In this document: positions 23,947 to 51,185 of the stretch, piece by piece
Layout of the letters: the number at the start of each line of letters is the position of its first letter
How positions within the stretch are numbered: the first letter of the stretch is position 1
Virus record (IMG/VR): IMGVR_UViG_3300023179_000072
Coordinates: 1-64,000 of that record
Length of the DNA stretch: 64,000 nt
From: a virus
Direction: 5' to 3' (one strand)
The notes under the pieces: generated by a model
What the model saw: only the letters and a program-made list of their open reading frames with translations
What the model was told of the DNA's origin: nothing
Database searches by the model: none
Position numbers and translations under genes: made by a program

Positions 23947-25155
23947 TTTGTTGCCCATTCATGCCCTATTTACCATAATTAAAGAATTGATTGTGTTGAA
24001 TAGACGGTTGTATTTGCCTTAAACGGTTAAGAATAATGGTCAAATTTTTAGCTTCTGGAACTATTTTTTCATGCAAAGTATCTCCAATAATCCTTTTGAT
24101 CAGAGCAATTTCTTTATCTGTCAACAATACATTTTTATACATTTTTCCCTCAAATACTAACTTATTCTTCCCTTATACCTCACTATACCACACACCATAC
24201 CATTTGTCAACACAAGCCTTATATCGACAGTTTGATAAAATACTCTTTAAACTATTTTCCAACAGCCCCCTCGTACCACGGCATAGCATAATAAGTGAAA
24301 TATAATCAAATTAAGGCTAAAATATAAGCTATTAGCTCAAAAAACCCTTATTTGTCGGATGTATATGATTTGGAAGAGGAAAAAGAAGGGGTATTTTTAA
24401 GGGGAGATAATGATTTTAATAGATAAAAATGCACAGAAATCATAGAAACCAGAGTCAAAACAGCAATAAATACTAGATTCTGGATAAAAGGAATGTAAAA
24501 TTCGTTAATTTTTGATTTTTTCATTTTTGATCTCTAATTGATAGTGCTAAAGATTTTATGATATGATGCAGATAGGAATCTTATGGACTATTAAATTTGA
24601 CCAGTATCCCATATAGTATGTATAGTAGTAGTAGTAATAATAAGGATAGTAATATTATGTTTTGGTTATATATCATAACAATGATTATTTCTTGGGAAAA
24701 ATTTTATCTATAAAATATGTTATTAAGTCTATGACTATAACCACCATTACAATACATAATACAATACTTATAACAATATCAGTATTATTAATAGTATATA
24801 TAAGCTCGCTGACTATTTCCATAAATTCGAACTGGATATATTAGGTATGACAGATCGGTTCTTTCATTAGTAGTATAACTGAGCCAGACTATGATTTCAA
24901 GAGACTATATTTTTATGTTCTAATTTAGGAATAAGACTACTAGTATCATCATAAGGTTTTTTAATATCAATAACTATAATATGATCAGTCAAATCAATAT
25001 TATTATTATCTTTCCTATAATTTGTAATAGCCTCATGAAATTTTTTACAAATATAATTACAGTCCATTGTGGGTTGTAACTTGATACTGGTGATCATAAT
25101 ACTTTGTTACTGACTGTTACCATAAAAGCCGAACAGGATATATTAGGTAGAACAA

Positions 25156-25228
25156 AGCAAGAGATGGGAATCGAACCCACGACATTTTGATTGGAAATCA
25201 AATACTCTACCAACTGAGTTACTCTTGC
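25156..25228 (-). tRNA. trnG: tRNA-Gly (TCC)
   Basis: Cloverleaf; TTTGA-TTTCCAA-TCAAA; GGTTCGATTCC; CCA not encoded. Confidence 0.92.
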
Positions 25229-25309
25229 TTAATTATTATTTTAGATTTGTGCTATTTAATAGTAATCCTAATATAAAAATGAGTAATACAATAATAATTA
25301 TATTTATAA

Positions 25310-25651
25310 TCAGCGCCAACTCCTTACTCTGTACCATTTACCATTACGACCTTGAGCAGCAGCATCTCCTGTTAAAACCATATTAGTTCGGGGAACACAA
25401 GTGTTACAATATCTACTGGACCCATAACCTATTCCTTCAAAATTTCCTATGGTTCCCCATACATGAGATGTTATGTTATTTGATGCCATATAATTTGCTT
25501 CTGCCTGACAACGATCTTGATCACTATTAGTTATAGTACTAGCATAACTTTCTACCCTTAAATTTTGCTGACTACTATAGTTAGGCTTGGATGCTTCAGC
25601 ATTTAATGTTCTAACAAAAATTAAACATAAAACTAGCATAAGGTTTTTCAT
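25310..25651 (-). CDS. Secreted Cys-containing protein (small CAP-like)
   Basis: Signal peptide; FEGIGYG..C..C.P..GDA..G..G-WYRVRSW. Confidence 0.7.
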   Translation of the reverse strand: MKNLMLVLCLIFVRTLNAEASKPNYSSQQNLRVESYASTITNSDQDRCQAEANYMASNNITSHVWGTIGNFEGIGYGSSRYCNTCVPRTNMVLTGDAAAQGRNGKWYRVRSWR

Positions 25652-25683
25652 AATGTCCTCCTTGAATTATTATTGTTATTAAG

Positions 25684-25707
25684 AAAAAACCCCCGAAGAC
25701 TCGGGGG
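25684..25707 (-). terminator. Intrinsic terminator
   Basis: CCCCCGAG-TC-TTCGGGGG hairpin followed by TTTTTT. Confidence 0.75.
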
Positions 25708-25730
25708 AATTTTCCTAAATAAAACTAATT

Positions 25731-25946
25731 TCATCGCACAATATTACGAACTCTGGATACTGTTTTCCTACCAACATTACGAGTAGCCTCAACAGTGCGA
25801 CGAGTTACTGTAACAGGAACACTAACTACTTCTTGTGTAACATTAACAACTCTGCTACGAAGAGTACAAGAATTTGAGGCACATTCTCCTGCTACAACAA
25901 ATGAGCCCGAAAGAATAAAACATACTGCCATTACAAATTTAATCAT
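25731..25946 (-). CDS. Small secreted protein
   Basis: Signal peptide, CxxxxC, Val/Arg-rich tail. Confidence 0.65.
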   Translation of the reverse strand: MIKFVMAVCFILSGSFVVAGECASNSCTLRSRVVNVTQEVVSVPVTVTRRTVEATRNVGRKTVSRVRNIVR

Positions 25947-26375
25947 AATTTTCTCCTGGTAAAGTTCTGTCGCATCCATACGACCGTTTTCTATATAGTA
26001 AAACTATCTGATGTAGTGGTCAACATTGGTCTTTTAAACACCATTTACTATGCTGACTACAACCAAAAAAACCAAATCCGCTAGATTAGCTGGGACTAAC
26101 CTAACGGACTGGTTTTATTACTGATACTATATTGAGTTTAAACTACAAAAAATTCAGTATCAGGTTTTTCTGATGTGGTTATTTTTGATCGTCGTGATAG
26201 TTTTGTAATTCTGCCACGATTATCATTATGACAAGCTTCTAAAAAGCATTTGCCCTCATGATTATCTTGATAACCTTTGAATTTCCATTCATAACTTTTT
26301 ATGATATCTTCTGGTAATGTAGAGTTATCATAAATTTCTCCTTCAACATCAAAATAGACTATTCTACGAAATGTT

Positions 26376-26630
26376 CTAGGCATGATGCTGATACTCCTTG
26401 GTTAAAGTTGCTGGTTTATCAAAGTCTTCCCAGTTATCAACTAAAATATCAGGAGCCTCTTTTCTTATTTCTGATTCTAAAGCATAATTAGATTCTTTGT
26501 CTTTTTCTTTACTAAGATAATCTCGTAGTCTATCCTTTATTTGCATAAAGTCTAATTCACCCAAGATTTGATCTATATACTTTCTTTGAATTTCTTGACG
26601 ATTAATCTGATTAATAACTTTAGTTTTCAT
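26376..26630 (-). CDS. Hypothetical protein (paralog of 28600..28794)
   Basis: IN-xNR-E...Y...IL..LD..LE-EI...P-IL. Confidence 0.7.
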   Translation of the reverse strand: MKTKVINQINRQEIQRKYIDQILGELDFMQIKDRLRDYLSKEKDKESNYALESEIRKEAPDILVDNWEDFDKPATLTKEYQHHA

Positions 26631-26848
26631 AAATCACCTCATAGAAAAAGTTAAAATACCATTTCTATGACTCCAACTATTCCCCTAGTAACTAAGGTAA
26701 TATTTGGCACCGTAGTACTTTTGATTTTACCAAAAATGAGTTATGAGTCAATTTGATATCTTATATCTTTTTTTATTAGGACCAAGCTATTTGGCTGACT
26801 ATAACCAACAAAGCCAAATCTGAAAGATTAGCAGAGACAGTTGTGCTA

Positions 26849-27145
26849 TTACTTAGTAGTATACTGATATTTATGTTTAAAAAATAACAAACAAAATAGT
26901 AATAGATTTAGTAATATAAAATATGAACTTGGTTCGGGAACACTATGAGAATGATAGTTGTGTATAGTATCAGAATCATGTGTTTTTGATTCTAGTAAAA
27001 AAAGATTATAAGAATCATCTTGTTCTTGTTCTTCAAGCAATTTAAAATTTTGGATATTTTTTATAAAGTCAGATTTATCAATATCTAATATTGAAAAATT
27101 ATATGAGTATGATGTTAAGAAATCACTAGATAGAGTTTTTTCCAT
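26849..27145 (-). CDS. PEP-CTERM sorting-domain protein (possibly truncated)
   Basis: VPEPSS, hydrophobic helix and basic tail at the C-terminus. Confidence 0.65.
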   Translation of the reverse strand: MEKTLSSDFLTSYSYNFSILDIDKSDFIKNIQNFKLLEEQEQDDSYNLFLLESKTHDSDTIHNYHSHSVPEPSSYFILLNLLLFCLLFFKHKYQYTTK

Positions 27146-27681
27146 AGTTTATAATGTCTTTATTTGGGAAGTTTTTTGTTATATTTTTGATTATGGTTTA
27201 TGTGAGTCTGTCCCGCGACCCACTCCACTATCATACACCAGATGGCAATCAAAAATGATATGGGACATTTTATTAAAGGCTGTGTGTGGTTGGTCTATGT
27301 TTTTAAATGGCCATATCCTAGCTCTTCATAAATTTAAGTTGTACTCATAAAAAAATTTTTACTTGACAGAAATCAGAGAAAAAGTTACATATTATGCAGG
27401 TGGTAAGGTTAAATATTAAAAGGTCTATAACACAATAGATACTAGTGAATAATAAATCTAAGTAAAGTTACTATTAGCAACACCCCTGCATTCTTTCAGT
27501 CCACTAGCAACTCCAATAACCATAGCCAAACAAAAAATATAACACATTGGCAAAATATCCTTTTACTAGAGTTTTGGTTGACAAGCACAGTTTTTGAGGT
27601 ATGATGAGAAAGGGTTCCTTCCCTCCTGCTACCCATTGTAACACACGGAGCTATTGGCACAATGCGTTGAGAATGAAAGAT

Positions 27682-28074
27682 TTACATCATAACTTCAAGA
27701 TCACGCAAGGTTTGAATGGTGGTCCACAGCCCAGGAACTATTTCTAAACAGGATATTTCTTTTATGCTGGCCCAGATATAACCAGAATGTTCCCAGTTTA
27801 ATTTTACACTATACTCTTTGGTACTAGTAGCATAAAATACTATTTTACTATATTTAGGATAATTAATAGTAACAGACTTTAGTTCTGAATGTGATAAAAC
27901 TATTCCTGTTTCCTCACTTAACTCTCTTACTGCACAATCTAATAGAGTTTCATTATGTTCTAATTTTCCACCAGGCAAACAATACTTATCAGGATTCCAA
28001 GGTGCTGTTGATCCTCTTTTTAGCAACAGAACCTTGTTTTTATGTACCAATGCTACTGTGGAGCTTTTTTGCAT
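27682..28074 (-). CDS. NUDIX hydrolase
   Basis: PGGKLEHNETLLDCAVRELSEETGI Nudix box. Confidence 0.92.
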   Translation of the reverse strand: MQKSSTVALVHKNKVLLLKRGSTAPWNPDKYCLPGGKLEHNETLLDCAVRELSEETGIVLSHSELKSVTINYPKYSKIVFYATSTKEYSVKLNWEHSGYIWASIKEISCLEIVPGLWTTIQTLRDLEVMM

Positions 28075-28599
28075 TTAATTTGATGATGGTTTGATTGTTA
28101 TATTAGGTGGCAAAGAATTATCATAATCAGCAACTAAATTATTACTTATATCTTCATTAACCAAAGTTAAAATTTCATTAACATAATCTAGCTCAAAAGT
28201 TTTGTAAAATTTATCTTGAACATAAACATCATATTTTCTCATAATTTAATACTTCCTGGTTTCCATAACATGCCTATAAAAAATCCAAGAATAAAATTTA
28301 AAAGTCCTACTATAACTATATTTTCATAAAAAGTTCTTATAGATAAATATCCATAGTAAGGATCTAGTGCCATATATTTTGAGTATGAACTATTTGTTAG
28401 AATTTCTAATTCTGTGCTCATCATAGAGACCGCGATCCATGCGAATAAACATCCGCAAAAAATAGACCGAATTAATCTCCATAAATTTTTCATACAGAGT
28501 CCAACTAGTTAAATAACTTATTATACACCCATTAATCACCACTCTCCATATAAATAATAAGAGTAACAAGAAATATAGCAAATAGATACATTGTAAATA

Positions 28600-28794
28600 T
28601 CATGATTGTTCCAAAATATATGGATAAAATTCATTTATTTCATTTTCCAAAACCTCATTAGTCAACAAATCTTTTTCACTCATCAAATGTTCATAAGCAA
28701 AAGTATACAAAGTATCAGAGTCCATACCGTCTAATATGGCACCCACATATTGCTCTGTTAACTCGTCACGATTAAAATCATTAATTTTGATCAT
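28600..28794 (-). CDS. Hypothetical protein (paralog of 26376..26630)
   Basis: By-eye alignment. Confidence 0.7.
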   Translation of the reverse strand: MIKINDFNRDELTEQYVGAILDGMDSDTLYTFAYEHLMSEKDLLTNEVLENEINEFYPYILEQS

Positions 28795-29806
28795 ATTTTT
28801 TTCTAATTGGTACTATTTATGTGAAAACCGGCCAAATCCCTATTAACATTCTTACAACACTCTTTTAATTTTTCAGGATTAATAATATCCCCTAAATGTA
28901 AAAGTGCTTCATATGTTTTATCATCAATAGTATCATACTTCAAAGCATCATGAAACAAATAGAAATATCTGGTTTCTATCTCTTTTAAAAGAGTATTAAC
29001 TTGTTTATTAAGATATACTATACTATTTAAATCGCCCACCATACTAATTAACCCTCTCTTTATACTTATACTTGAATATTTTCTTTAGAACTTTTTATAC
29101 TATCAATTTCCCAACTTTCCATATAAATAGTATTCTCATCAGGATACTGGATCATTAATTCGGTCAGTTTTATATAGCGTCCATTTTAGATTTACAATTT
29201 CTCATAACAATATTTACATTAACATAATAATAAGTTTTATCAGTTTCTTCCTGCATAATCAATGGACTCCCATTTGTTGCTGACTATCACCACGACCGCC
29301 AAATCCGAAGGATAAGGTGCGACAGTAAAGGGTTCCAATATAAGCCAGACTACTAACAATAGTCTTATAAAGTTGGTGTTCATAATACTGAGATTTTGTC
29401 TCAAATATTTTCTACCACTTTTACTATCACTATCCCACACACCAGTATACCATACTTTGCTACTGGTGGCAAGTCTTTTAGTTTCAAGGGTTTATGTTGA
29501 ATCATCTCTTTTACTATTTGATCATATTCTGGCTGACTATCGGCATGTGGGGCAAACCGGCTAGATAAGGTGGTACAGTTTAGGTATTCTCTTTTTTTAC
29601 AAAACCTATTATAATTTTTATCTAAACCCTTTATTTCCATATACTTACAACCCCACCCCCCTATCCATTATATCGGCAGTCTGGCCTTTGTAAATTAGAA
29701 AACTTTCGTAACCCCTTATGGATATTAAACTTACGACAAATTTTACGGGCCCCGGTCGTCACAAGTCCTTTGCTAGCAAGCACTTACGCACTTACCCACA
29801 ATCTAC

Positions 29807-29850
29807 AAAAAAAAGGAAGCCGCCCCCCATTTCTGAGGGACGGCCTCCCC
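29807..29850 (-). terminator. Intrinsic terminator after the DUF932 gene
   Basis: GGGGAGGCCGTCCC..GGGGCGGCTTCC followed by T8. Confidence 0.85.
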
Positions 29851-29877
29851 GAGCCACGCACCACGAAAGGAGAGCGA

Positions 29878-30825
29878 TTAGATAGCGCTCGCAAACTCGA
29901 CGGCTGTATTTAGAGCCTTGAGATTGTCCACGCCATTCTGGCCGAACCAGAGAGAGTCGAGGCGGTTGCTTACCGTGCGACCCTTAGTGTAGTTCAGGTA
30001 TTCGTTGAAACCGTTGTATGCAGCCCACCACGTTCCGCGAACCCCAACCGCACTCTGCTTCGGTCCTTCGACGAGCGTAAGAATCTCGTCCATGATGTTG
30101 CGAGTACGAGTTTTGATATCCTCGTCCGGGGTCTTATCAATCCCGAGCAGCACCTTGACGTACTTACGAACGTCGTTTTGGTTGAAGTCTTTCGACGCGA
30201 GGAACCGATACTGTTCCGCAGTCGCCTCAAACTGTGCATTGATATTGTCCATGATATCTCGCACATTTTCCAAATTCGTCTTGCTGGAACGGGTATGACG
30301 AATCCTAATAAGTGAACTCTCTTTGCTGCTATGAGCAGCGGCGAGGGTGTTCACACACACAACCCGAATCGGCGTATAGCCGACGCGAATCGACGTTGTG
30401 CCGTCGTGACTGTTAGATAGCAGGATGAACTTGCTCACCTCGTCACCCTTGACAATCTCGCAATTGTCGCGGTTGAGTTGAGCCAGTACCCAAACCTTCT
30501 CGCCTTCACTGAGCGAACCGGCAGTGTGCAGTTGGCACTCGCCAGCATCGAGGAACGGCTGGAACCAGTCGAACGCATCCTGATTTTGCAGGGGCGTATA
30601 ACGGGGGCCAACCACTCCCAGAACACGGTTGTCGGTCTTGCGGAAAGTCGCCTTGGCATTGACCTCCGTACCTTCAGCCGTAAAGAGCGGCTTGGTTCCG
30701 ACCTCCCAATCCAGACCAGCAGCGGTAATCGCCTCGCTGATCGACGGATTCTCATCCAATTGCGTACCCTCACCGTGCCAAGGGGTGGCACCGACGAACA
30801 TCATCTTTTCAACCATAGCGGGCAT
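29878..30825 (-). CDS. DUF932-family phage/plasmid protein (TIGR03299-like)
   Basis: PWHG-G, AGLDW-V, LGVVG-RY-PLQN, TAGSL-xG, NSHDG, TPIRVVC-NTL, HT; AAGGAG RBS; GC-rich. Confidence 0.92.
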   Translation of the reverse strand: MPAMVEKMMFVGATPWHGEGTQLDENPSISEAITAAGLDWEVGTKPLFTAEGTEVNAKATFRKTDNRVLGVVGPRYTPLQNQDAFDWFQPFLDAGECQLHTAGSLSEGEKVWVLAQLNRDNCEIVKGDEVSKFILLSNSHDGTTSIRVGYTPIRVVCVNTLAAAHSSKESSLIRIRHTRSSKTNLENVRDIMDNINAQFEATAEQYRFLASKDFNQNDVRKYVKVLLGIDKTPDEDIKTRTRNIMDEILTLVEGPKQSAVGVRGTWWAAYNGFNEYLNYTKGRTVSNRLDSLWFGQNGVDNLKALNTAVEFASAI

Positions 30826-30870
30826 AACTAACTCCTTCGTGTCTAAGAACTTTTGCTTTGATAGTCTAAG

Positions 30871-30896
30871 TATACTACTATTATCGGCTCTGTCAA
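30871..30896 (-). promoter_or_regulatory. Representative sigma70-type early promoter (TTGACA..CCGATAATA..TATACT)
   Basis: The same TTGACA-N-CGATAA-N-TAnAAT pattern recurs left of most 76-bp elements and at ~6750, 13450, 15860, 18830, 23300. Confidence 0.8.
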
Positions 30897-30987
30897 GGGG
30901 CAAACTTGCGAAAAAATTTCGTGACGCAAGTCGTTGGTATACAAGCACTTACGTCGGGCGGGGCCGCCCCGGTTTGCTCTAAGTCTT

Positions 30988-31485
30988 TTATGGTGAAGGA
31001 TTTAGGAGAGGCATACCATATTTCTTTTCAAAAAGTTTTGATGTTTCTGAGGTATACGCACACTCTTCTGGAATATAACAATACAATCCAACACATCTGG
31101 CCTTCGGATTATCCTCATGAATTGCTTGCTTAATCCATTTAAGAGTATCGCCAGAACAAATTAGATCATCCACTACAATATAACGAAAAGGAGAAACTCC
31201 CTCGATATGGAAATTACTATATCTTTTTTCATCAGGCTTACGAACAATCACAATGTTCTTATTCAGAATTTCACAAACTTGAGGGGTAACAACTAACCCG
31301 CTTACGCCACAACACGCAATACTATCAAAAGTATTAATTATCTTTCGTAGATTACATACTGCCTTAATGATTATTTTATTTCTATTCTTGTGATTTAGCA
31401 CCTGACAAGTATGAGAGGCTCCTTGGATAATTTGTCCATCTGCTGTGCGACGAACATCTTCAATACTTTGATTCATTATATTCAT
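30988..31485 (-). CDS. Phosphoribosyltransferase-fold protein
   Basis: IVVDDLICSGDT PRPP-binding motif; IVRK. Confidence 0.85.
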   Translation of the reverse strand: MNIMNQSIEDVRRTADGQIIQGASHTCQVLNHKNRNKIIIKAVCNLRKIINTFDSIACCGVSGLVVTPQVCEILNKNIVIVRKPDEKRYSNFHIEGVSPFRYIVVDDLICSGDTLKWIKQAIHEDNPKARCVGLYCYIPEECAYTSETSKLFEKKYGMPLLNPSP

Positions 31486-31581
31486 AAAAACGGATGGTAC
31501 GATTCGAACGTACTATAAGATAAGAAATAAAGAGAGATAATACTTGTCCCACCAAGTCGCATCCGTTAGAGAGAAGATCAA

Positions 31582-31779
31582 TTACTCATCATCTATTTCA
31601 TTAGTTAGATTATGATAGTAATTATCCCAGTTGGTGTTTTCAGAATCCTCATAATCTTCGCTATCTTCTTCATCCATCCATGGCTCATCGTTATTACTAT
31701 CATGATAGTAATTTTCGTCAATATAATCGGATTCTGCGACTAACTTGTGATAATCATATTCATATTCATTCAGATTCAT
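31582..31779 (-). CDS. Very acidic small protein
   Basis: D/E/N/Y-rich, 65 aa. Confidence 0.65.
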   Translation of the reverse strand: MNLNEYEYDYHKLVAESDYIDENYYHDSNNDEPWMDEEDSEDYEDSENTNWDNYYHNLTNEIDDE

Positions 31780-31828
31780 TTCTTCTCTCCTTAGACCGAT
31801 TATACACCAACTTTGCTAACTTGTCAAG

Positions 31829-31901
31829 TGGACCCTCTGGGGCTCGAACCCAGAACCAACGGATTAAAAGTCCGCTGCGCTGCCAATTGCGCCAAAGGTC
31901 C
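31829..31901 (-). tRNA. trnK: tRNA-Lys (TTT)
   Basis: GCGGA-CTTTTAA-TCCGT; GGTTCGAGCCC. Confidence 0.93.
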
Positions 31902-31938
31902 GTTTAATTAGCATACCACTAAAATTTTTTTTGTCAAG

Positions 31939-32010
31939 CAGCCCTATGGAGGATCGAACTCCAATCTCCGGGATGAAAGCCCGGTATACTAGCCATTATA
32001 CGATAGGGCC
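31939..32010 (-). tRNA. trnE: tRNA-Glu (TTC)
   Basis: CCGGG-CTTTCAT-CCCGG; AGTTCGATCCT. Confidence 0.92.
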
Positions 32011-32039
32011 ACATCGCAACTCAATCGTCAGCCTCCGAA

Positions 32040-32115
32040 TAGGGCGTCAAGGAGTCGAACCTTGCTCATGAACTGCTTATAAGACAGGTGACCACTACCG
32101 GCGGTCGCACGCCCC
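32040..32115 (-). tRNA. trnI: tRNA-Ile (TAT)
   Basis: GGGGCGT/ACGCCCT acceptor; CCTGT-CTTATAA-GCAGT; GGTTCGACTCC. Confidence 0.82.
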
Positions 32116-32251
32116 ATACTTCAATCATACAATACTTATCGGCACTTGTCAACCAGATACTTGAAAAAATCCTAAGTCGTTACGAGATAAGAACTTACGT
32201 CAAATTCGGCCCGCCACATTTGCTCTAAGTCTTTTATTTCCAACAACTTAG

Positions 32252-32331
32252 TGGTTGGTTAGGGACTCGAACCCCCGAAGCCGAAGCACCTGATCTACAG
32301 TCAGGCCCATTTGCCGCTCTGGAAACTCACC
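32252..32331 (-). tRNA. trnY: tRNA-Tyr (GTA) with two acceptor-stem mismatches (possibly degenerate)
   Basis: CCTGA-CTGTAGA-TCAGG; variable arm; acceptor GGTGAGT/ACCAACC. Confidence 0.75.
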
Positions 32332-32340
32332 TATATATAA

Positions 32341-32427
32341 CAGAGGCCGAGAGAATTGAACTCTCACCGGTTTTATCCGGCCCGCTTTAGCAAAGCGGTG
32401 CAGCAAACCAATATCTGCCTGACCTCT
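32341..32427 (-). tRNA. trnS: tRNA-Ser (GCT)
   Basis: CCGCT-TTGCTAA-AGCGG; long variable arm; G73. Confidence 0.92.
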
Positions 32428-32435
32428 AAATATAA

Positions 32436-32517
32436 CTGCTCGGGCTGGACTTAAACCAGCAAGTCTTTCGACGGTTGATTAACAGTCAACTGCGTTTATC
32501 AATTTCGCCACCGAGCA
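32436..32517 (-). tRNA. trnN: tRNA-Asn (GTT) with an atypical long variable arm
   Basis: TGCTCGG/CCGAGCA, GTTGA-CTGTTAA-TCAAC, variable hairpin GTC-GAAA-GAC, T-loop TTTAAGT. Confidence 0.85.
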
Positions 32518-32522
32518 TCAAA

Positions 32523-32594
32523 TTCCGGAGTCTGGGTACGATCCAGAAATAAAAGGGCCAAAACCTTTTGTGATACCAGTTTCACCACTCCGGA
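32523..32594 (-). tRNA. trnQ: tRNA-Gln (TTG)
   Basis: AAAGG-TTTTGGC-CCTTT; T-loop ATCGTAC. Confidence 0.82.
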
Positions 32595-33116
32595 TCATCT
32601 TCTACATTCTCTGCCATTTCCTCTGTTCATGTTCTTATATGTATCTGTTAATGAGTGACAATTTGGACACAGTATCTGTAAATTATCTTCTTTATTATTT
32701 TTATAGTTACCATCCTTATGATGAATTTCTAGTGGACACTTATTCGTATTTGGATTAATTTTATTCCATCCACACTCTTCACACTTTCTACCTCGTTCTA
32801 TCAATAAAAATTTTTTGATATAGCGTCTTACTGTTCCATTATTTTCACATCCATCATCTTTTCCAAGTTTCCATAACTGTATTTTATTATTATATTGAAA
32901 TATGTTCTGGCATTTAATACTGCAATAAATTTGTCCTTGACCTTTAATTAGATTGCTACAATTTTTACAATATTTAATCTTTTTATTGCGTTTTTTAAAT
33001 AACTTGTTATTTACTTTAGCAGCACAACTACGAGAGCAATAATTTTTTGATGTTTTTTTAATCTCTGATATTTGTTTATTAAATTCTTTATTGCAGCAGT
33101 TACATTTAACTTTCAT
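32595..33116 (-). CDS. HNH endonuclease inserted in the tRNA cluster
   Basis: YCSRSC/YCSIKC repeats; CEECG..LEIHHKDGN..NN..NL..LCPNCHS. Confidence 0.9.
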   Translation of the reverse strand: MKVKCNCCNKEFNKQISEIKKTSKNYCSRSCAAKVNNKLFKKRNKKIKYCKNCSNLIKGQGQIYCSIKCQNIFQYNNKIQLWKLGKDDGCENNGTVRRYIKKFLLIERGRKCEECGWNKINPNTNKCPLEIHHKDGNYKNNKEDNLQILCPNCHSLTDTYKNMNRGNGRECRR

Positions 33117-33191
33117 TTTTTGTTTCTCCTTTTGATACGAATATATACACCAAAAGGAGAACTATTTACCGTTTTTTATTTCAATTCCCAA

Positions 33192-33264
33192 AGCCGGTAG
33201 TAGGATTTGCACCCACGACATTCAAATTACAAATTTGACACTCTGCTAACTGAGTTATACCGGC
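33192..33264 (-). tRNA. trnT: tRNA-Thr (TGT)
   Basis: TCAAA-TTTGTAA-TTTGA; T-loop TGCAAAT. Confidence 0.88.
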
Positions 33265-33267
33265 AAT

Positions 33268-33456
33268 CTACATATCATACTCTTGACGCCAAGCCTTGTC
33301 AATGTCGCGTCGTGTTCGCTGACGCTTGGGCCTGTTGTCCATAGTGGTATCCCGATGCTCCTTGTGACCCGTAGGAACTTGCCACTGTGGCCTGACCTTG
33401 AGTTTGATATGGTTGCGGCGTGGTCGCATATCGTCGTTGTTGTGGAGCGTAATCAT
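33268..33456 (-). CDS. Small basic protein (paralog of 44984..45154)
   Basis: RP-W...GH..H....DNRPKR-RTR. Confidence 0.7.
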   Translation of the reverse strand: MITLHNNDDMRPRRNHIKLKVRPQWQVPTGHKEHRDTTMDNRPKRQRTRRDIDKAWRQEYDM

Positions 33457-33618
33457 GATTTCATCTTACCTAAAAATTTTGCGTTGTCAAGTGCTTTTTT
33501 GGCGTATAATATCCCGTATACTTGTATTTTACACTATAGGGGACAGAATGTCAAGATGAAGAAATTTCAAAATGTGAATGCTTATGTAGGACGTGTCATC
33601 ATATAGACAGACATTATT

Positions 33619-44280: not shown

Positions 44281-44470
44281 GTCATCACTCTCTCTTTCTC
44301 TCATCATTCTACTATCTATTATCGTCAAATGCAAGAGGGAAACTTTAATCTTTCAGTATTGCAAGGATTGTTGTAAAGTATTGGTAAATAAAGACTTATG
44401 GCAAAATAGGCCCCGCCCCGTCAGCCCTAAGTGTTTTAACACAAAGGGTTTATGACGAGTACAGATTTAT

Positions 44471-44701
44471 TCAATCAAAATCCACAAAAATAATCTGATG
44501 ATATCCACGAGGCTTAATAGTCAAACCACTATCATAATCTGTGGTATCAGACTTAACACCCGTCATACCAACCAAAGCCTTAGCCCGCCTAGTAATCTTA
44601 TGCTGAGTAGCGTCGTTCTTCACTGCAAAATCATAACGCTTTACCCAACCATAATTAGGCTCACCACCAAAAGTATCAGTAATCGTTACGGTCGCTTTCA
44701 T
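44471..44701 (-). CDS. Phage protein (TDTFGGE-NY-WV-R family)
   Basis: Recurrent motif; AGGAG RBS. Confidence 0.75.
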   Translation of the reverse strand: MKATVTITDTFGGEPNYGWVKRYDFAVKNDATQHKITRRAKALVGMTGVKSDTTDYDSGLTIKPRGYHQIIFVDFD

Positions 44702-44983
44702 TTTCGAACTCCTTGTTATCAAAAACCAAATCACTCACAAGATAAGACGCCAGAACACCAAACACAAAACCTAAACCAAAAATAGTATAACCATCCATGG
44801 CCCTTTTCCTTTTAATTTACCAGATAGGTAATCAAACACCCTCCAATAAAACTTGCCAACAACACCATTTTTTCCATAAAACTCATTCTTGCACCATTCT
44901 ATATTAGAGTTATCGACATGTCAAGACCACCAACTTTAGGCTGACTATGGCCACCTTCGCCAAATCCGAAGGATTAGGAGAGA

Positions 44984-45154
44984 CTACCAACCATCATTCA
45001 TCGCTTTACGATTCTTAGCCCCACGAGTTCGGAGGCGCTTGGGACGATTATCGTGCTGACCGCTACCCCCAAGGTGGGGATTATGTCCCTTACCAATTTC
45101 CCATACTGGACGAATATTCAGCACCAGTACCATAGGCTTTTTTCGTTTGCTCAT
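44984..45154 (-). CDS. 56-aa basic protein (not in the ORF track), paralog of 33268..33456
   Basis: MSKRKKPMVLVLNIRPVWEIGKGHNPHLGGSGQHDNRPKRLRTRGAKNRKAMNDGW. Confidence 0.7.
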   Translation of the reverse strand: MSKRKKPMVLVLNIRPVWEIGKGHNPHLGGSGQHDNRPKRLRTRGAKNRKAMNDGW

Positions 45155-45297
45155 GTTCTCTACTATACCATATTATCGACAATCGTCAAGCACAATGTTT
45201 AGGAAATCTTTTTGATGTAAAGTGTGAGCCCACAAGGACTTGTGTCAAAAACGGCCCGCCCCCCGCGACGTAAGTCTTTACATCACAAGGGTTTATA

Positions 45298-45507
45298 TCA
45301 CCAATCTGATTGGTCAAAGTCCAGATCAGCATCTTCTAGATGCTCGTCTTGCTCATCGTAATAATCGTCATCATCTTCCGTAGAATAGTTATCGGAGTGG
45401 TAATCGTCGTATCGCTCTGCAATCTCATCATACATATGTTCAGTGTCGGCAGTCCAGCCGCCGATGTGCGATTCCATGAACGAGTCGAGGAAAGAATCTT
45501 CAAACAT
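45298..45507 (-). CDS. Very acidic small protein
   Basis: D/E-rich, 69 aa; GGAG RBS. Confidence 0.7.
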   Translation of the reverse strand: MFEDSFLDSFMESHIGGWTADTEHMYDEIAERYDDYHSDNYSTEDDDDYYDEQDEHLEDADLDFDQSDW

Positions 45508-45686
45508 GAGCCTATCTCCAAGTGGTGGTGTTACTGAACTTCGCTTAGTCTACATCTATTATCGTCGCTTGTCAAGCGCATTCTTGAAAAATTTTTTACT
45601 ATTCGTAAACCATTGATATATAAGCACTTACAACTAGCGCGGTCCGGCCCCGTTGCTACAAGTGCTGTAGCAGCAAGGGTTTACGT

Positions 45687-46376
45687 TTAGTAATCGCCGC
45701 AAGTATCCAAGCGTACAGGCTCGCTTCTAAATGAACATACGTTCAGTCCGCTAGCAGCAGTTACAGCGTCAAGTTGTATGCCTAGAAACTCTTGTCGTTC
45801 CATAGCATTAGTATCATTATGATTTGGCAATTCCAAAACAAACTCATGCCAGAGCGGCATTTCATAGCCGTGTTCATCTTCCACTACAATATCGTAAAAA
45901 CGATAGTTATTCATTAGTAATCTTCTCCATAAAAGGAACCATCATCATTATCATAGTATCCGTAATCTTCGTTCGTTCCATAACCTGCGGACGCAAGACC
46001 GGATTCATGATCTCCGTCCATGCTATCATTGTAATCGTCATTCCAGAAATTATCTTCTGGCGGAGCAGGCGGAATATCATTATCGTCCTCATAAAAATCA
46101 TTGTAATCGTCGTAGTTCATATCATCCTCATAAGCGTTATCGGGATCGAACAGAGGATCGGGGTGACTCATAGACTATTCTCCTTTTTCAAGAAACATAC
46201 CACACTTCGCCGCTATCATCAACCATCTCTTCCGGCTCAAACTCATCCACGATGCCGATCACATCGGCCCAGTCCCAAAAATCCACATTGATACTGTAAT
46301 CGTCAATCGGTTCCACCGTACCCTCATCACGCATTTCGGACAGAATCCGGTTCACATCCTCAAAATCGTTCAGCAT
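45687..46376 (-). other. Three acidic small genes (45687..45914, 45914..46171, 46188..46376)
   Basis: 45914 contains DSMDGDHESGLASAGYGTNEDYG. Confidence 0.7.
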
Positions 46377-46564
46377 GGTAGCGTTCTCCGTTGTGATGCT
46401 CTGAGTCTACACTATTTATCGACCATTGCAAGAGGCAAACTTAGAAAATAATCTTGTGCCAAACAAAAAAAATATTATTTGTTGTAAGTTGTTGTAGGAT
46501 AAGCACTTACGCTTAGCGGGGCCTGCCTTACTGATCATAAGTTCTTATGCAGCAAGGGCTTATG

Positions 46565-46861
46565 TCAACATACACTTTCAGCCTTTACCGACAGTTCCTG
46601 TGCCATAGCCTTACCCATCTTGAACTTGACGGTCTTGCGAGCCTCAATCATAACGGTTTCGCCAGTACGAGGATTACGAGCCTTACGAGCCTTAGATTCA
46701 ACCACGTTGAAAACACCAAAATTACGCAGTTCGATTCGTCCTTCACTGACAAGAGTAGCCATCAGTTCATCCAAAGTGTGCTGGACTATGGCCTTAGCCT
46801 GCAAACCAGTAATGCCACACTTCTCAGCAATCCGTTCGGCCATATCACGCTTAGTATTCAT
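46565..46861 (-). CDS. IHF/HU-family DNA-bending protein
   Basis: TK..GRIELRNFGVF..ARKARNPRTGE-V-I..V-FK-GK; resembles planctomycete IHF subunits. Confidence 0.93.
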   Translation of the reverse strand: MNTKRDMAERIAEKCGITGLQAKAIVQHTLDELMATLVSEGRIELRNFGVFNVVESKARKARNPRTGETVMIEARKTVKFKMGKAMAQELSVKAESVC

Positions 46862-47065
46862 TCTGCTCTCTCTTTCTTGTCTGATCATTCTATACTTATT
46901 ATCGACCAAAGTCAAGCCCCAGTATAAAAAAACTTTGCTTATAATCTCGTAAGATTTCTTATGGCAAATACCGTGCCAAAGCCGTAAGTCGTTAGCCAGC
47001 AAGCACTTGCGGCAAATCTGGCCCGCCGGCCTTGTCCTAAGTGTTTTAGGCTCAAGGCTTTATGT

Positions 47066-47377
47066 TCAAGGACCAATAACCATTCCACTATAGAACGGGA
47101 ACACCTGTTCACCTTTACTCACAAACCACTTAAAGTTTTTCTGAAATACAGTATACGGACTATACTGATTGATTCGATCCTTCGTGGTACTGGTTTGCCA
47201 GCCCCCATTGCTGAGGGTATACGTTCCATCCTCATGGATTCTCACCACGCAAGTACGATGCAGCGTGATGCCCACGCTACCATCACTCAAAATCTCCGCA
47301 TAAGTATTATTACCAACCTTACGACGGTTAGCATTACGCTTACCACGAACCATAGAAACTGCTTGTGAGTGAGTCAT
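47066..47377 (-). CDS. Phage protein (GGW-T-TTK-R-N family)
   Basis: Recurrent motif. Confidence 0.75.
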   Translation of the reverse strand: MTHSQAVSMVRGKRNANRRKVGNNTYAEILSDGSVGITLHRTCVVRIHEDGTYTLSNGGWQTSTTKDRINQYSPYTVFQKNFKWFVSKGEQVFPFYSGMVIGP

Positions 47378-47397
47378 ATTTACCCTTTATGTAATTT

Positions 47398-49552
47398 TCA
47401 AGAAACGCCCATGTATGAAGAGTTCTTCACACAATAATCATAAAACATCTCGTTCAACACTTCGCTATAGTTTTCGTAAGTCAAACGCTTCTTAGAACAA
47501 GTAGACTGACACTCTGCAAAAAACTTTCCAGAACTAACTTCATACACAATGGTGCAAGCGTAAGACTCGCTACCCCAAATCCTAGCCTTGCAGTCGATAA
47601 ACTTCTTGAACATCTTTCTCTCTCTTTCTTCCTTCTCTATCTCTTATATCGACATTATACCGCAGCATTCTTTAGTTGCAAGATAAAACTTTCCTTGCAA
47701 TGCTGTAAGGTTTAGCTCAGCAAAAAGCGTGCCAAAATAGTTGGTGTCATAAGTTGTTGTGTGGCAAGTACTTACGTCAAATCCGGCCCGCCATATTTGC
47801 TGTAAGTGCTTATACAGCAAGGGCTTATGCATTATGCTGAAACTTTGTTAAGCATGATCATCAACCTTCCCAATGGAAAGGTGAAACTTCAGCATTATTT
47901 GCCATAATAGCCTGATACTGATCCTTCAAGGCTTCAACCCTTTCACGAGAACCGGGCTTTCCAACCTTGAGAATCATGGTATCCTCACCACCAATCAGAC
48001 GAGGATCAGCCTTTTCATCCCTAACCTTGCCAATACGACGTAAAGCCTTGCGATTGAATTTCAGCACCTTTTCACTGCTGATCGGACCATACACATGGTT
48101 TGCCAAAGACGGCTGATGACGAATAGCAATTCCAACAAACGTCATACGAGCCTGAATCTTAGCCTTTTCGATGATAGGGAACTTGGTTTTCATTTTTCTT
48201 TCTCTCTTTCTTGTATTTGGATTATAGCAGGATTTTTTTGGATTGCAAGACAAAAGTTTCCTTGCAATGTCGTAAGATTCAGCAGAGCAAATGCTGTGCC
48301 AAATATTGAGCAAATCATGTTGAACATAAAGTGTTGCGGCATAAAGACTTACATCAAATCCGGCCCGCCCGCTTTGCCGCAAGTCTTTTAGCGACAAGGG
48401 GTTACGTTCAATCCCCACTCAGGAAGGGGTATCGCTCTTGAAGCACCCTATCCGTCTCATCCCACACAGCGTCCTGCTCGACACGGACGCAGTAGTCGTT
48501 CAGCTTCTGGTAGAACGTAGCCGCATCCCGAAGCAAAACATTTTCGGGAAAATTGTTGATTCGTACGAAAAATCCACCACCCCCCGTTGAGGTGATATCA
48601 AAACGCACGTCATCATGCATCATATCATAGATAGCGTCGATGATTTCCTGAGCCGTAACGATTCGACCAAGCATTTCTTTTTCCTTTTCTCTCTTTCTCT
48701 TTCCAGAATTGTATGCAATTTTTCCGCCGCGTCAATCCCTCAAACGAGGGATCGGTTTTCGCTAGCGATTTTCGCATAGAGAGAATCGTACACAGTACGA
48801 TGAACACAGTCCAAATCAACACTCTTCAAGGTATAGTAGCCGACAATATTGTCAAAAATATGGTACTTGTCACCTTCCTTGACAATCGTAAAACCCACCC
48901 GATAGGCGTAATAGTTGATCTTTGCACGAATAGTGCTATACTTCGGCATCTTGCGAATCTTTCTCATGTTCTTCTCTCTCTTTCTCTTTCTTCTCTACTT
49001 CTTATATCGACATTATACAGGGTCTATCTTGAGTTTTCAAGAGAAATCCTGAAATTTTTCTGTCAAGAAATTTTGACAAAACTTTTTGGATTTTTCATAT
49101 GCTTTGGCATACCATATGCTAGAGCAAAAAGTGTGCCATACTAGCAATTCGCCCTAAGTCTTTACGCTGTAAGTACTTACATCAAATCCGGCCCGCCATA
49201 TTTGCTGTAAGTGCTTATACGACAACGGTTTATGGCTTCACAAAATTTCGTATAAGATTTCTGTTAAGCATTGAGCACCTGTACAGTAGTGTATGTTACA
49301 AAAACGCTAAACACTAACAACCCTATAATTTCAGGCATTCCTACCTTCTTTCCAACCAGCAAACACCAAAGTAAACTCCTTACCGGGATATTTGGCAGCA
49401 ATATAAGCACGAGCAGTCTCTTCACGATTGTCGGAAGCAGACACACCCTGAACACCAACACCATCAATCATAACATTCCAAATCCTACGCTTAGGAAACT
49501 TCACCCTAGGCAGGCTTCGGATAAACTGATTCACACTAGTAACCTTTTGCAT
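47398..49552 (-). other. Small cassette genes (47398..47613, 47861..48193, 48408..48674, 48740..48967, 49331..49552)
   Basis: Each is preceded by a (GA)n purine leader and a promoter. Confidence 0.7.
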
Positions 49553-49825
49553 TTTCTCTCTCTCTCTCTCTTTCTCTACAAACCAATCTACCAAACTTTT
49601 TCCGCCGCGTCAATCCCCCTAATGAGGGATAAATTTTCATCACGGCATTGTTACGCCAACAATCAAACCGAAAATAGCCACAACGCAAAAAATGCAAACC
49701 ATAAACGAAACCCTTTCTTTCTTCTCTATCTCTTATATCGACATTATACCACGGTATTCTTTAGTTGCAAGAAAAAAATTTCCTTGCAATGCTGTAAGGT
49801 TTAGCTCAGCAAATATTGTGCCAAA
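47632..49825. repeat. ~105-bp near-identical direct repeat of a promoter block (47632-47736 and 49721-49825)
   Basis: CTTCTCTATCTCTTATATCGACATTATACC..TTGCAAG..CTTGCAATGCTGTAAGGTTTAGCTCAGCAAA..GTGCCAAA. Confidence 0.9.
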
Positions 49826-50024
49826 TATTTAATTCAATAGACTCGCCATAAATCCTTTACCAGATTAGACTTACATCAAATGTGGGCGTCCATATTGATC
49901 ATAAGTCTTTATACCTCAATAACATAGGGGTGGTTTTTCTGTTTTTTTTACCCTTTTCCCAACCCAGACTAAAAGCGGAGGGTGGTTGATACGCAATCGA
50001 AACCAATAAAATATAATGTATTAC

Positions 50025-51185
50025 CTAAACTATCCCTGTAGACCCTTGTTTCTTACTCTTTCTTTGTCTTTTTAGCTGTCTATAAGACAAGCTGAATCTT
50101 CTGTTTCTATTAGAATCCAGTATATCAGGATACTTTTCTTTTAATTTAAGTTCCTTTTCCCATCTGTACGCAGCATATGATACTTTTTTACCGCACCATA
50201 TTTGGTTACCACTCCAGCGGTCAGCAAAATATTGCGTTAACTTGTATAAATCTGCTTTAAACTCTATCCACTTTTCCTCAAATTCTTTTGGAAAATCCCC
50301 GCGTTTATCAAGACTGTTTTGTCTATGGCTTCCTTTTTCTAGATGATCAGGATTAAAGCACCGACCGTTACCACATTTATGTCGTATTAATTCGGGATAC
50401 TCTCCAGTTTTTTCCCAATACGCAACCCTATGCTTTAATAGTGTCTTGGTTTGACCAGAGTCTTTGGATTCGCCAATAGTTACCTGCATTCTAGCATAAC
50501 CACTAACATGAACATCATTACTTTCTTTACATCCCGTCTCATTATTTATAGTATAAAATTTTGTATAAGAATTATACGTAATAGCTTTTTGTAGCCATGG
50601 TCTCAAATATTCTTCGTTATTGGAGGCCCACGTATTCAATAAGCAATTTTTATTGTATTTATTTAGATAATGTGTTTCTTTCCTCAATAGCTCAGCCTCA
50701 CTACACTGCTCAATAATAGCATACTTGATAGTACAGTCTTTATTATTAAAATAAGACAATAACAATTTTGAATTATGCTTATTATGTTTTAAGTCTCTGC
50801 AATGTTCTGTTAGTCTTTTTTTAATGTTTATACTACTACCTATATATAGTTTGATATCATTAATTTTAAAAGCAGCACACGAATCATTTTTGTCATATTT
50901 CCAAACAAAATAAATAGCATAGACACCAGAAACACTATTTTTCATTCGTTTGATATTATTAATAGTTTTCCATTGTTTGATCACAGAATGATCTACATTA
51001 GTTTTTATATCTCTTAGCTTAAACATATTACTCAAATATGCTTTGCTCACATTATATTTTTTTATTAAACTATTAGTAGTAGCACCAGCTGCATATTCTG
51101 CTATTAATTTTCTTTCTTGGTTGCCATTTAATATGGTTTTAATTTTGCGTTTAGTTTTGTCCTTACTGCCTTTTGGTCTTGGCAT
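50025..51185 (-). CDS. Homing endonuclease with GIY-YIG and His-Cys-box/HNH-type domains
   Basis: GVYAI..YIGSS..R..H..E; HRVAY..RHKCGNGRCFNPDHL..N..D; N-terminal PRPKGS AT-hook-like. Confidence 0.8.
   Translation of the reverse strand: MPRPKGSKDKTKRKIKTILNGNQERKLIAEYAAGATTNSLIKKYNVSKAYLSNMFKLRDIKTNVDHSVIKQWKTINNIKRMKNSVSGVYAIYFVWKYDKNDSCAAFKINDIKLYIGSSINIKKRLTEHCRDLKHNKHNSKLLLSYFNNKDCTIKYAIIEQCSEAELLRKETHYLNKYNKNCLLNTWASNNEEYLRPWLQKAITYNSYTKFYTINNETGCKESNDVHVSGYARMQVTIGESKDSGQTKTLLKHRVAYWEKTGEYPELIRHKCGNGRCFNPDHLEKGSHRQNSLDKRGDFPKEFEEKWIEFKADLYKLTQYFADRWSGNQIWCGKKVSYAAYRWEKELKLKEKYPDILDSNRNRRFSLSYRQLKRQRKSKKQGSTGIV

Follow-up and report, generated by a model that had tools for sequence, protein, structure and literature searches.

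The stretch analyzed here (the window) comprises positions 1 to 64,000 of an IMG/VR viral contig of 81,337 bp (IMGVR_UViG_3300023179_000072), whose completeness CheckV estimates at 58%. Every gene from 64.7 kb down to position 1 lies on the minus strand, and between 30 and 50 kb these are small early genes with a repeated regulatory cassette between them. The first five cassettes of this array each carry an exact copy of TGGCAC-N5-TTGC, a box that matches the −24/−12 promoter element of sigma-54 (RpoN). The five copies fall between positions 46964 and 49823, against a shuffled expectation of 0.02; none of 100 shuffles reached five, and no further exact copy occurs elsewhere in the whole 81-kb contig. 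As reported in an earlier reading of the same DNA made from the sequence alone (the sequence-only reading), all five are intergenic (i.e. between minus-strand open reading frames, ORFs) and on the coding strand. They are confined to the first 3–4 kb of the array, which also holds a near-match and a variant:

49809–49823, minus strand: sigma-54-type box 1 (TGGCACAATATTTGC), exact match, first feature of the early array
49124–49138, minus strand: sigma-54-type box 2 (TGGCACACTTTTTGC), exact match
49105–49119, plus strand: facing near-match (TGGCATACCATATGC, TGGCAT-N5-ATGC), separated from box 2 by a 4-nt spacer
48287–48301, minus strand: sigma-54-type box 3 (TGGCACAGCATTTGC), exact match
47720–47734, minus strand: sigma-54-type box 4 (TGGCACGCTTTTTGC), exact match
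46964–46978, minus strand: sigma-54-type box 5 (TGGCACGGTATTTGC), exact match, upstream of an HU/IHF-like gene
46447–46461, minus strand: variant box (TGGCACAAGATTATT), −24 half intact, −12 half replaced by an AT-rich block

The plus-strand near-match, also pointed out in the sequence-only reading, is confirmed; it faces box 2 and makes a pair with it.

Match of the box to the sigma-54 element

Two small early proteins, and not the motif, served to gather 160 related loci, which gave 721 kb after redundancy removal. An unbiased scan of all 4-mer/gap/4-mer combinations over this set places GGCA-N6-TTGC among the top two-part motifs (325 observed vs 17 expected), together with the arms of an 86-bp element described below and two other palindrome families. 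Spacing is rigid in these relatives, with 286 copies at N5 and no more than 8 at each of the other gaps between 1 and 11, and in the window the GG and GC doublets are exactly 10 nt apart in all five boxes. As a class of motif, the GG-N10-GC arrangement is conserved in many of the relatives; its conservation had been proposed as a check.

A logo seeded on the eight GGCA/TTGC bases only reads TTT-GG-CA-Y-R-NN-A-T-TTGC-T in the relatives. We compared it with a hand tally of 29 intergenic sigma-54 sites of Salmonella mapped by chromatin immunoprecipitation (Table 3 of PMC3844500). Position −21 is C 0.60/T 0.35 in the phages and C 0.59/T 0.38 in Salmonella, and position −20 is purine only in both (A 0.52/G 0.44 and G 0.66/A 0.34, respectively), while position −11 is T 0.70/A 0.17 in the phages and A 0.48/T 0.45 in Salmonella. 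Fixed and free positions coincide between the two sets, and the boxes agree with the longer consensus TGGCAC-G/A-N4-TTGC-W, in which −21 is Y, −20 is R, and −15/−14 are T. Degenerate copies in the relatives (TGGTAT and TTCGC) are variants known from real promoters. With every defining −24/−12 feature present, the box is, in sequence, indistinguishable from a sigma-54 element.

The sixth site, at 46447–46461, had been described as a decayed copy. The site is present, but as a member of a conserved class of variants, TTTGGCAY-R-N-AATTATATTT, and not as a product of decay; among the relatives (loci L002–L161) this class has 71 coding-strand copies vs 1 on the opposite strand. The TTGGCA of this class begins ~40 nt ahead of the −35 hexamer of early promoters and, unlike the full box, is strictly oriented. 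The class may derive from sigma-54 sites or may serve a different binder.

The facing arrangement extends beyond this phage group. Among the matches listed, the facing pair TGGCAY-N5-TTGC-N(4–6)-GCAA-N5-RTGCCA occurs in more than 120 viral contigs of 30–68% G+C, with unrelated flanks and unrelated bases at the N positions. The pattern comprises 18 fully specified bases and two twofold degenerate positions, i.e. an estimated ~1 chance match per 10^11 bases. Its presence across such a range of composition and flanks suggests that many hosts share the binder, and a host factor whose specificity is the same in all phyla, as that of sigma-54 is, would fit more easily than one phage regulator. None of 802 bacterial genomes (a small sample drawn evenly from two phyla, ~2.4 Gb by estimate) contains the facing pair, a hint rather than proof that it is phage specific.

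The early cassette and its variation among relatives

The cassette runs from an 86-bp quasi-palindrome through the box (where present) and, often, a CCTTAC-N6-GYAAGG palindrome to a near-consensus sigma-70-type promoter and a purine-rich leader. As such, the claim that each box lies between a repeated element and the downstream gene stands, with the 86-bp element on its upstream side and the sigma-70-type promoter on its downstream side. The element has 21 copies between 29.7 and 49.9 kb, with profile matches on both strands and a near-consensus promoter after each, and cassette copies are 70–92% identical to one another. It folds into a long imperfect hairpin on either strand, has no following T-run, and is not called by a terminator scan. 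The features around the boxes are as follows, with distances from box to promoter measured from the C of the GC doublet to the −35 hexamer:

49845–49929, minus strand: 86-bp quasi-palindromic element upstream of box 1, weakest copy
49782–49799, minus strand: palindrome CCTTAC-N6-GCAAGG, between box 1 and its promoter
49743–49770, minus strand: sigma-70-type promoter TTGCAA-16-TATAAT, 38 nt after box 1
49151–49237, minus strand: 86-bp element upstream of box 2
49012–49040, minus strand: sigma-70-type promoter TTGAAA-17-TATAAT, 83 nt after box 2
48321–48410, minus strand: 86-bp element upstream of box 3
48260–48277: equivalent copy of the CCTTAC palindrome
48221–48248, minus strand: sigma-70-type promoter TTGCAA-16-TATAAT, 38 nt after box 3
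47746–47831, minus strand: 86-bp element upstream of box 4
47693–47710: equivalent copy of the CCTTAC palindrome
47654–47681, minus strand: sigma-70-type promoter TTGCAA-16-TATAAT, 38 nt after box 4
46980–47068, minus strand: 86-bp element upstream of box 5
46937–46954: degenerate copy of the CCTTAC palindrome
46887–46915, minus strand: sigma-70-type promoter TTGACT-17-TAGAAT, 48 nt after box 5
46565–46861, minus strand: gene for an HU/IHF-family DNA-binding protein of 98 aa (PF00216, 2e-27)
46482–46569, minus strand: 86-bp element upstream of the variant box

The CTTAC that had been noticed after four boxes is present and is the left arm of the conserved palindrome. From the element edges defined by nhmmer, the gaps between element and box are 2, 11, 22, 12, and 22 nt; these reproduce the values given before (7, 16, 26, 17, and 26) with a constant offset of 4–5 nt, so that the steps of roughly 10 bp hold. 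The further claim of helical phase is borne out in part. Forward boxes of the relatives show a moderate 10.5–11.5-bp phasing with the upstream element (r about 0.5); it loses significance if repeated distances are entered only a single time, and reverse boxes show no phasing.

Several other repeated sequences accompany these promoters. A conserved GYCGATAA block, similar to the −10 element that flagellar sigma-28 promoters carry (GCCGATAA), stands directly after the −35 hexamer in the spacer or directly after the −10 hexamer (46887–46915, 47654–47681, and 49743–49770, and promoters at 43400–46430). A palindrome TGTCAA-N7-TTGACA lies at 49060–49079 on the minus strand, between box 2 and its promoter, and the block GTTTTGTCAAAATCTCTTGACA, as found in this palindrome, follows many reverse boxes in the relatives. 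A second small cassette, in which a hairpin ATCCCTC...GAGGGAT is fused to a TTGACG-type promoter, has two copies (48719–48760 and 49597–49638) that serve the genes at 48408–48674 and 49331–49552. In the leaders of the early genes between 46860 and 49560, purine-only (GA)n or AAGAAAG runs of 15–25 nt replace a compact Shine-Dalgarno site.

The sequence-only reading suggested a search for a gene encoding a bacterial enhancer-binding protein (bEBP) or an RpoN-like protein. No such gene was found: PF00158 (activator ATPase) and PF04552 (sigma-54 DNA-binding) are absent from the 58%-complete contig and from five complete relatives, and no activator site is recognized near the boxes. The "IHF gene" downstream of box 5 does encode an HU/IHF fold; its highest score is to IHF-alpha (72 bits), short of the curated cut-off of 111, and it stays under the IHF equivalog cut-offs. 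The exact IHF consensus WATCAANNNNTTR is found nowhere in 46400–49950, and the IHF-assisted layout of activator site, IHF consensus, and core promoter lacks its IHF consensus in this interval. The best bacterial matches of the HU/IHF protein are 37–44% identical (Fibrobacter and Bartonella) and its atlas neighbors are a mixture of Planctomycetota and Pseudomonadota; with such low identities and mixed neighbors, the gene is uninformative for host assignment.

Among the relatives, the box keeps its position, 20–90 bp upstream of strong sigma-70-type early promoters, while its orientation varies. Boxes are found in 22 facing pairs (−12 halves 4–6 nt apart), 22 back-to-back pairs, and tandems, and a strong sigma-70-type promoter follows within 150 nt in the coding sense, at preferred gaps, for ~70% of forward and ~70% of reverse boxes alike. 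In forward modules the box stands at a fixed 9–10 nt from the CTTAC palindrome, and in at least one relative a forward box lies ~35 nt before a start codon, with the usual leader and no obvious sigma-70 promoter in between. We also considered a general rule by which reverse boxes fire into terminators and rejected it, a strict hairpin and T-run following only 30 of 239 reverse boxes, many of these being twin palindromes.

The box is also optional. Searching by the CCTTAC palindrome alone gave 134 promoter modules: in 90 the 100 nt upstream contain no box, in 18 a box in forward orientation, in 14 one in reverse, and in 12 boxes of both orientations. The ortholog of a 110-aa gene is boxless in four relatives, and four different cassettes stand upstream of this gene (L007/L012, L024, L002, and L004/L016). 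The box adjoins three unrelated kinds of upstream module. In place of the 86-bp element, many early promoters are preceded by twin 15-bp palindromes CTGCCATTTTGGCAG with a GC-rich spacer (e.g. at L088, L104, and L133) or by paired CCCC-N6–9-GGGG hairpins with a T-run on the antisense strand, and both of these rank with the most strongly enriched two-part motifs. G004, a complete relative, has its 7 boxes within the first 3.6 kb of the early array; more than 25 kb of sigma-70 promoters with no box follow, a layout like that of the window. In the window and in this relative alike, the early array opens with boxes and sigma-70-type promoters in tandem, which supports what had been claimed.

The array is also distinct in composition. 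G+C is 39–45% per 2-kb bin between 30 and 50 kb, with one exception (42–44 kb, 36%), and 24–34% outside it, except for the bin at 54–56 kb (41%); the shift is sharp at both edges (30000–50000). Between the tail-fibre-like genes and the array, a single ORF of 386 aa (50025–51185, minus strand) carries GIY-YIG and HNH domains, i.e. homing endonuclease types. Ten tRNA genes lie at 25155–35471 on the minus strand, 8 of them clustered at 31.8–33.3 kb and one being a tRNA-Ile with anticodon TAT, while Rfam gives no credible RNA family within 44–51 kb. Past the window, the first gene of the plus-strand structural block (contig 65186–65860, plus strand, equivalent to L001:1186–1860) encodes a 224-aa protein with a weak match to sigma-70 region 2 (PF04542, 6e-5; phrog_1740), which may be a candidate phage late sigma factor.

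DNA of the contig was detected only in sequencing runs of lake, freshwater, and pond DNA. Searches of the region against GenBank phages with blastn give a sole match of 86 nt, in a cyanophage ORF, and the terminase shares no more than 25% identity with those of Bacillus, Clostridium, and Microcystis phages; these two comparisons reveal no cultured relative and, with matches this short or distant, give no host. WhiB and psbA are absent from the five complete relatives, which removes two positive host clues and proves nothing.

Comparison with known promoters and cassettes

The boxes share their −24/−12 sequence, GG-N10-GC spacing, and degenerate positions with bacterial sigma-54 promoters and silent sites (e.g. 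glnAp2, pspA, and hypA; PMC3844500, PMC4591121). In E. coli and Salmonella, sigma-54 likewise binds many sites that are silent, some of them pointing away from genes, and sigma-54 sites that overlap other promoters can repress those (PMC4591121, PMC3844500). Unlike the bacterial sites, those described here are phage-borne, clustered (five in 3 kb), and placed before strong sigma-70 promoters that head an early array; in the relatives they are mostly reversed or in facing pairs, no activator gene or site is recognized with them, and the facing form is missing from the bacterial genomes sampled. Bacterial genes with sigma-54 and sigma-70 promoters in tandem (glnA p1/p2; glmY, glmZ, rpoH, and yeaG, PMC3844500) also hold both elements in one upstream region. 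There, however, the sigma-54 promoter has a fixed orientation and depends on a known activator, whereas box orientation is free across the phage relatives and the sigma-70 promoter is always downstream and near-consensus.

In its overall make-up the cassette is similar to the promoter-early stem-loop (PeSL) cassettes known from T4-type phages (Arbiol et al. 2010, PMC2839356), in which a repeated dyad-symmetric element is joined to a strong sigma-70-like early promoter. PeSLs lie between small non-essential early genes and, as modular shuffling would have it, vary from relative to relative at orthologous genes. Both traits have counterparts here, i.e. the 21 copies of dyad and promoter between small early genes and the different cassettes at the orthologous 110-aa gene. 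By contrast, the symmetric element in the window is an 86-bp quasi-palindrome that has no T-run and is not an evident terminator, and the phage is not T4-like, its terminase being only about 25% identical to those of Bacillus siphoviruses. In addition, PeSLs have not been described with a sigma-54-type box (PMC2839356), which the cassettes here carry optionally.

What may bind the box, and to what effect

The close sequence match points to the sigma-54 holoenzyme as the probable binder, counting docking and promoter function together. More tentatively, we favor a role for the box as an optional docking site for host sigma-54 polymerase within a PeSL-like early cassette; here we infer both the binder and the effect of binding. 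The box would be an optional insert of ~25–35 bp in a mobile early regulatory cassette, on which the host enzyme would dock as the stable, silent closed complex that it is known to form at sites of this kind. Selection would then keep occupancy 20–90 bp upstream of the first early sigma-70 promoters, and not a direction of transcription. Such a complex may mark or insulate the first early promoters, block read-through or antisense polymerases, or soak up sigma-54 holoenzyme. If a host activator fired the boxes here, the outcome would be an extra conditional transcript starting ~60–110 nt upstream of the sigma-70 start and reading through. To our knowledge, no bacterial sigma factor other than sigma-54 stays parked on DNA without starting transcription. 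The alternative already raised in the sequence-only reading, that the phage sequesters RpoN holoenzyme, is compatible with docking.

Several observations weigh against docking by sigma-54. The box is dispensable, as 67% of homologous modules (90/134) do without it, and the five complete relatives have 0, 1, 1, 7, and 6 boxes. Facing pairs are the typical operator form for dimeric regulators, and the same phage group has other motifs containing TTTGGCA (the twin palindromes and the forward-only variant box), which could point to a different protein reading TGGCA half-sites. In the main rival, which we consider doubtful, the box would be the operator of another DNA-binding protein, of phage or host, that reads TTTGGCA-type half-sites and regulates early sigma-70 promoters from upstream regardless of orientation, the likeness to sigma-54 being coincidental. 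Such a regulator would suit a box that keeps a set distance to the sigma-70 promoters downstream of it whichever way it points, occurs in the palindromic facing, back-to-back, and tandem arrangements typical of multimeric proteins, and is carried by a phage that encodes no sigma-54 machinery; its two halves can also be viewed as imperfect direct repeats of TTKGCW, spaced by one helical turn. Coincidence, however, must then reproduce all fixed and degenerate positions and the exact spacing of the sigma-54 element, and a phage-specific regulator explains less easily the facing pairs in viral contigs of such different G+C and flanks. The host bears on the docking reading as well, since several dominant lake lineages, namely Actinomycetota and most Cyanobacteria, generally lack rpoN (PMC12316311).

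If sigma-54 polymerase is the binder, the boxes could instead be working enhancer-dependent promoters that couple the early genes to a host bEBP and its signal, in tandem with sigma-70. In the window, all five are intergenic and point with the genes, they match sigma-54 promoters in full, and an HU/IHF-like gene lies within the array; among the relatives, the fixed distance to the CTTAC palindrome, the moderate phasing of forward modules, and the forward box with no obvious sigma-70 promoter before its gene would also agree. We nonetheless find this unlikely. Over all loci, 81 exact boxes point with the genes vs 254 against them, and with duplicates removed 100–110 are forward vs 214–240 reverse (about two thirds against the genes), so orientation is not conserved. 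Two polymerases on a facing pair with −12 halves this close cannot both be productive, and the missing PF00158 and PF04552 genes, activator site, and exact IHF consensus also speak against promoter use, as does the strong sigma-70 promoter after every box, sufficient alone, together with the boxless orthologous genes of close relatives. Of the claim that the first transcripts use sigma-54 promoters, the identity of the box and its tandem with sigma-70 promoters hold, whereas a conserved promoter role does not, given the orientations, the pairs, and the boxless modules. It is very improbable that the boxes are functionless passengers copied with a mobile promoter cassette. They do lie within duplicated cassettes that swap positions between relatives, and they are optional, yet 10–12 core positions and their spacing are fixed over hundreds of diverged copies while the inner N5 and the flanks drift, which makes this reading unlikely, and the same box occurs beside unrelated upstream modules and in unrelated phages.

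Phage early programs are thought to use sigma-70 or phage polymerases, and a full-text literature search returned no description of sigma-54 sites clustering in a phage genome. That infection could be tied to a host signaling state, as the sequence-only reading proposed, is pure inference. The box could itself aid host assignment: either hosts lacking rpoN are excluded, or the sigma-54 reading is disproved. More broadly, many unrelated phage lineages might begin their early regions with sigma-54 docking sites, often in facing pairs whose two members could not fire together, a generalization we hold to be on the doubtful side. There, the closed complex itself would be the landing pad, roadblock, insulator, or sponge, with no need for an activator or for transcription. 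If true, phages would either tie infection to the host's signaling by a route not described for phages or exploit the silent polymerase complex itself.

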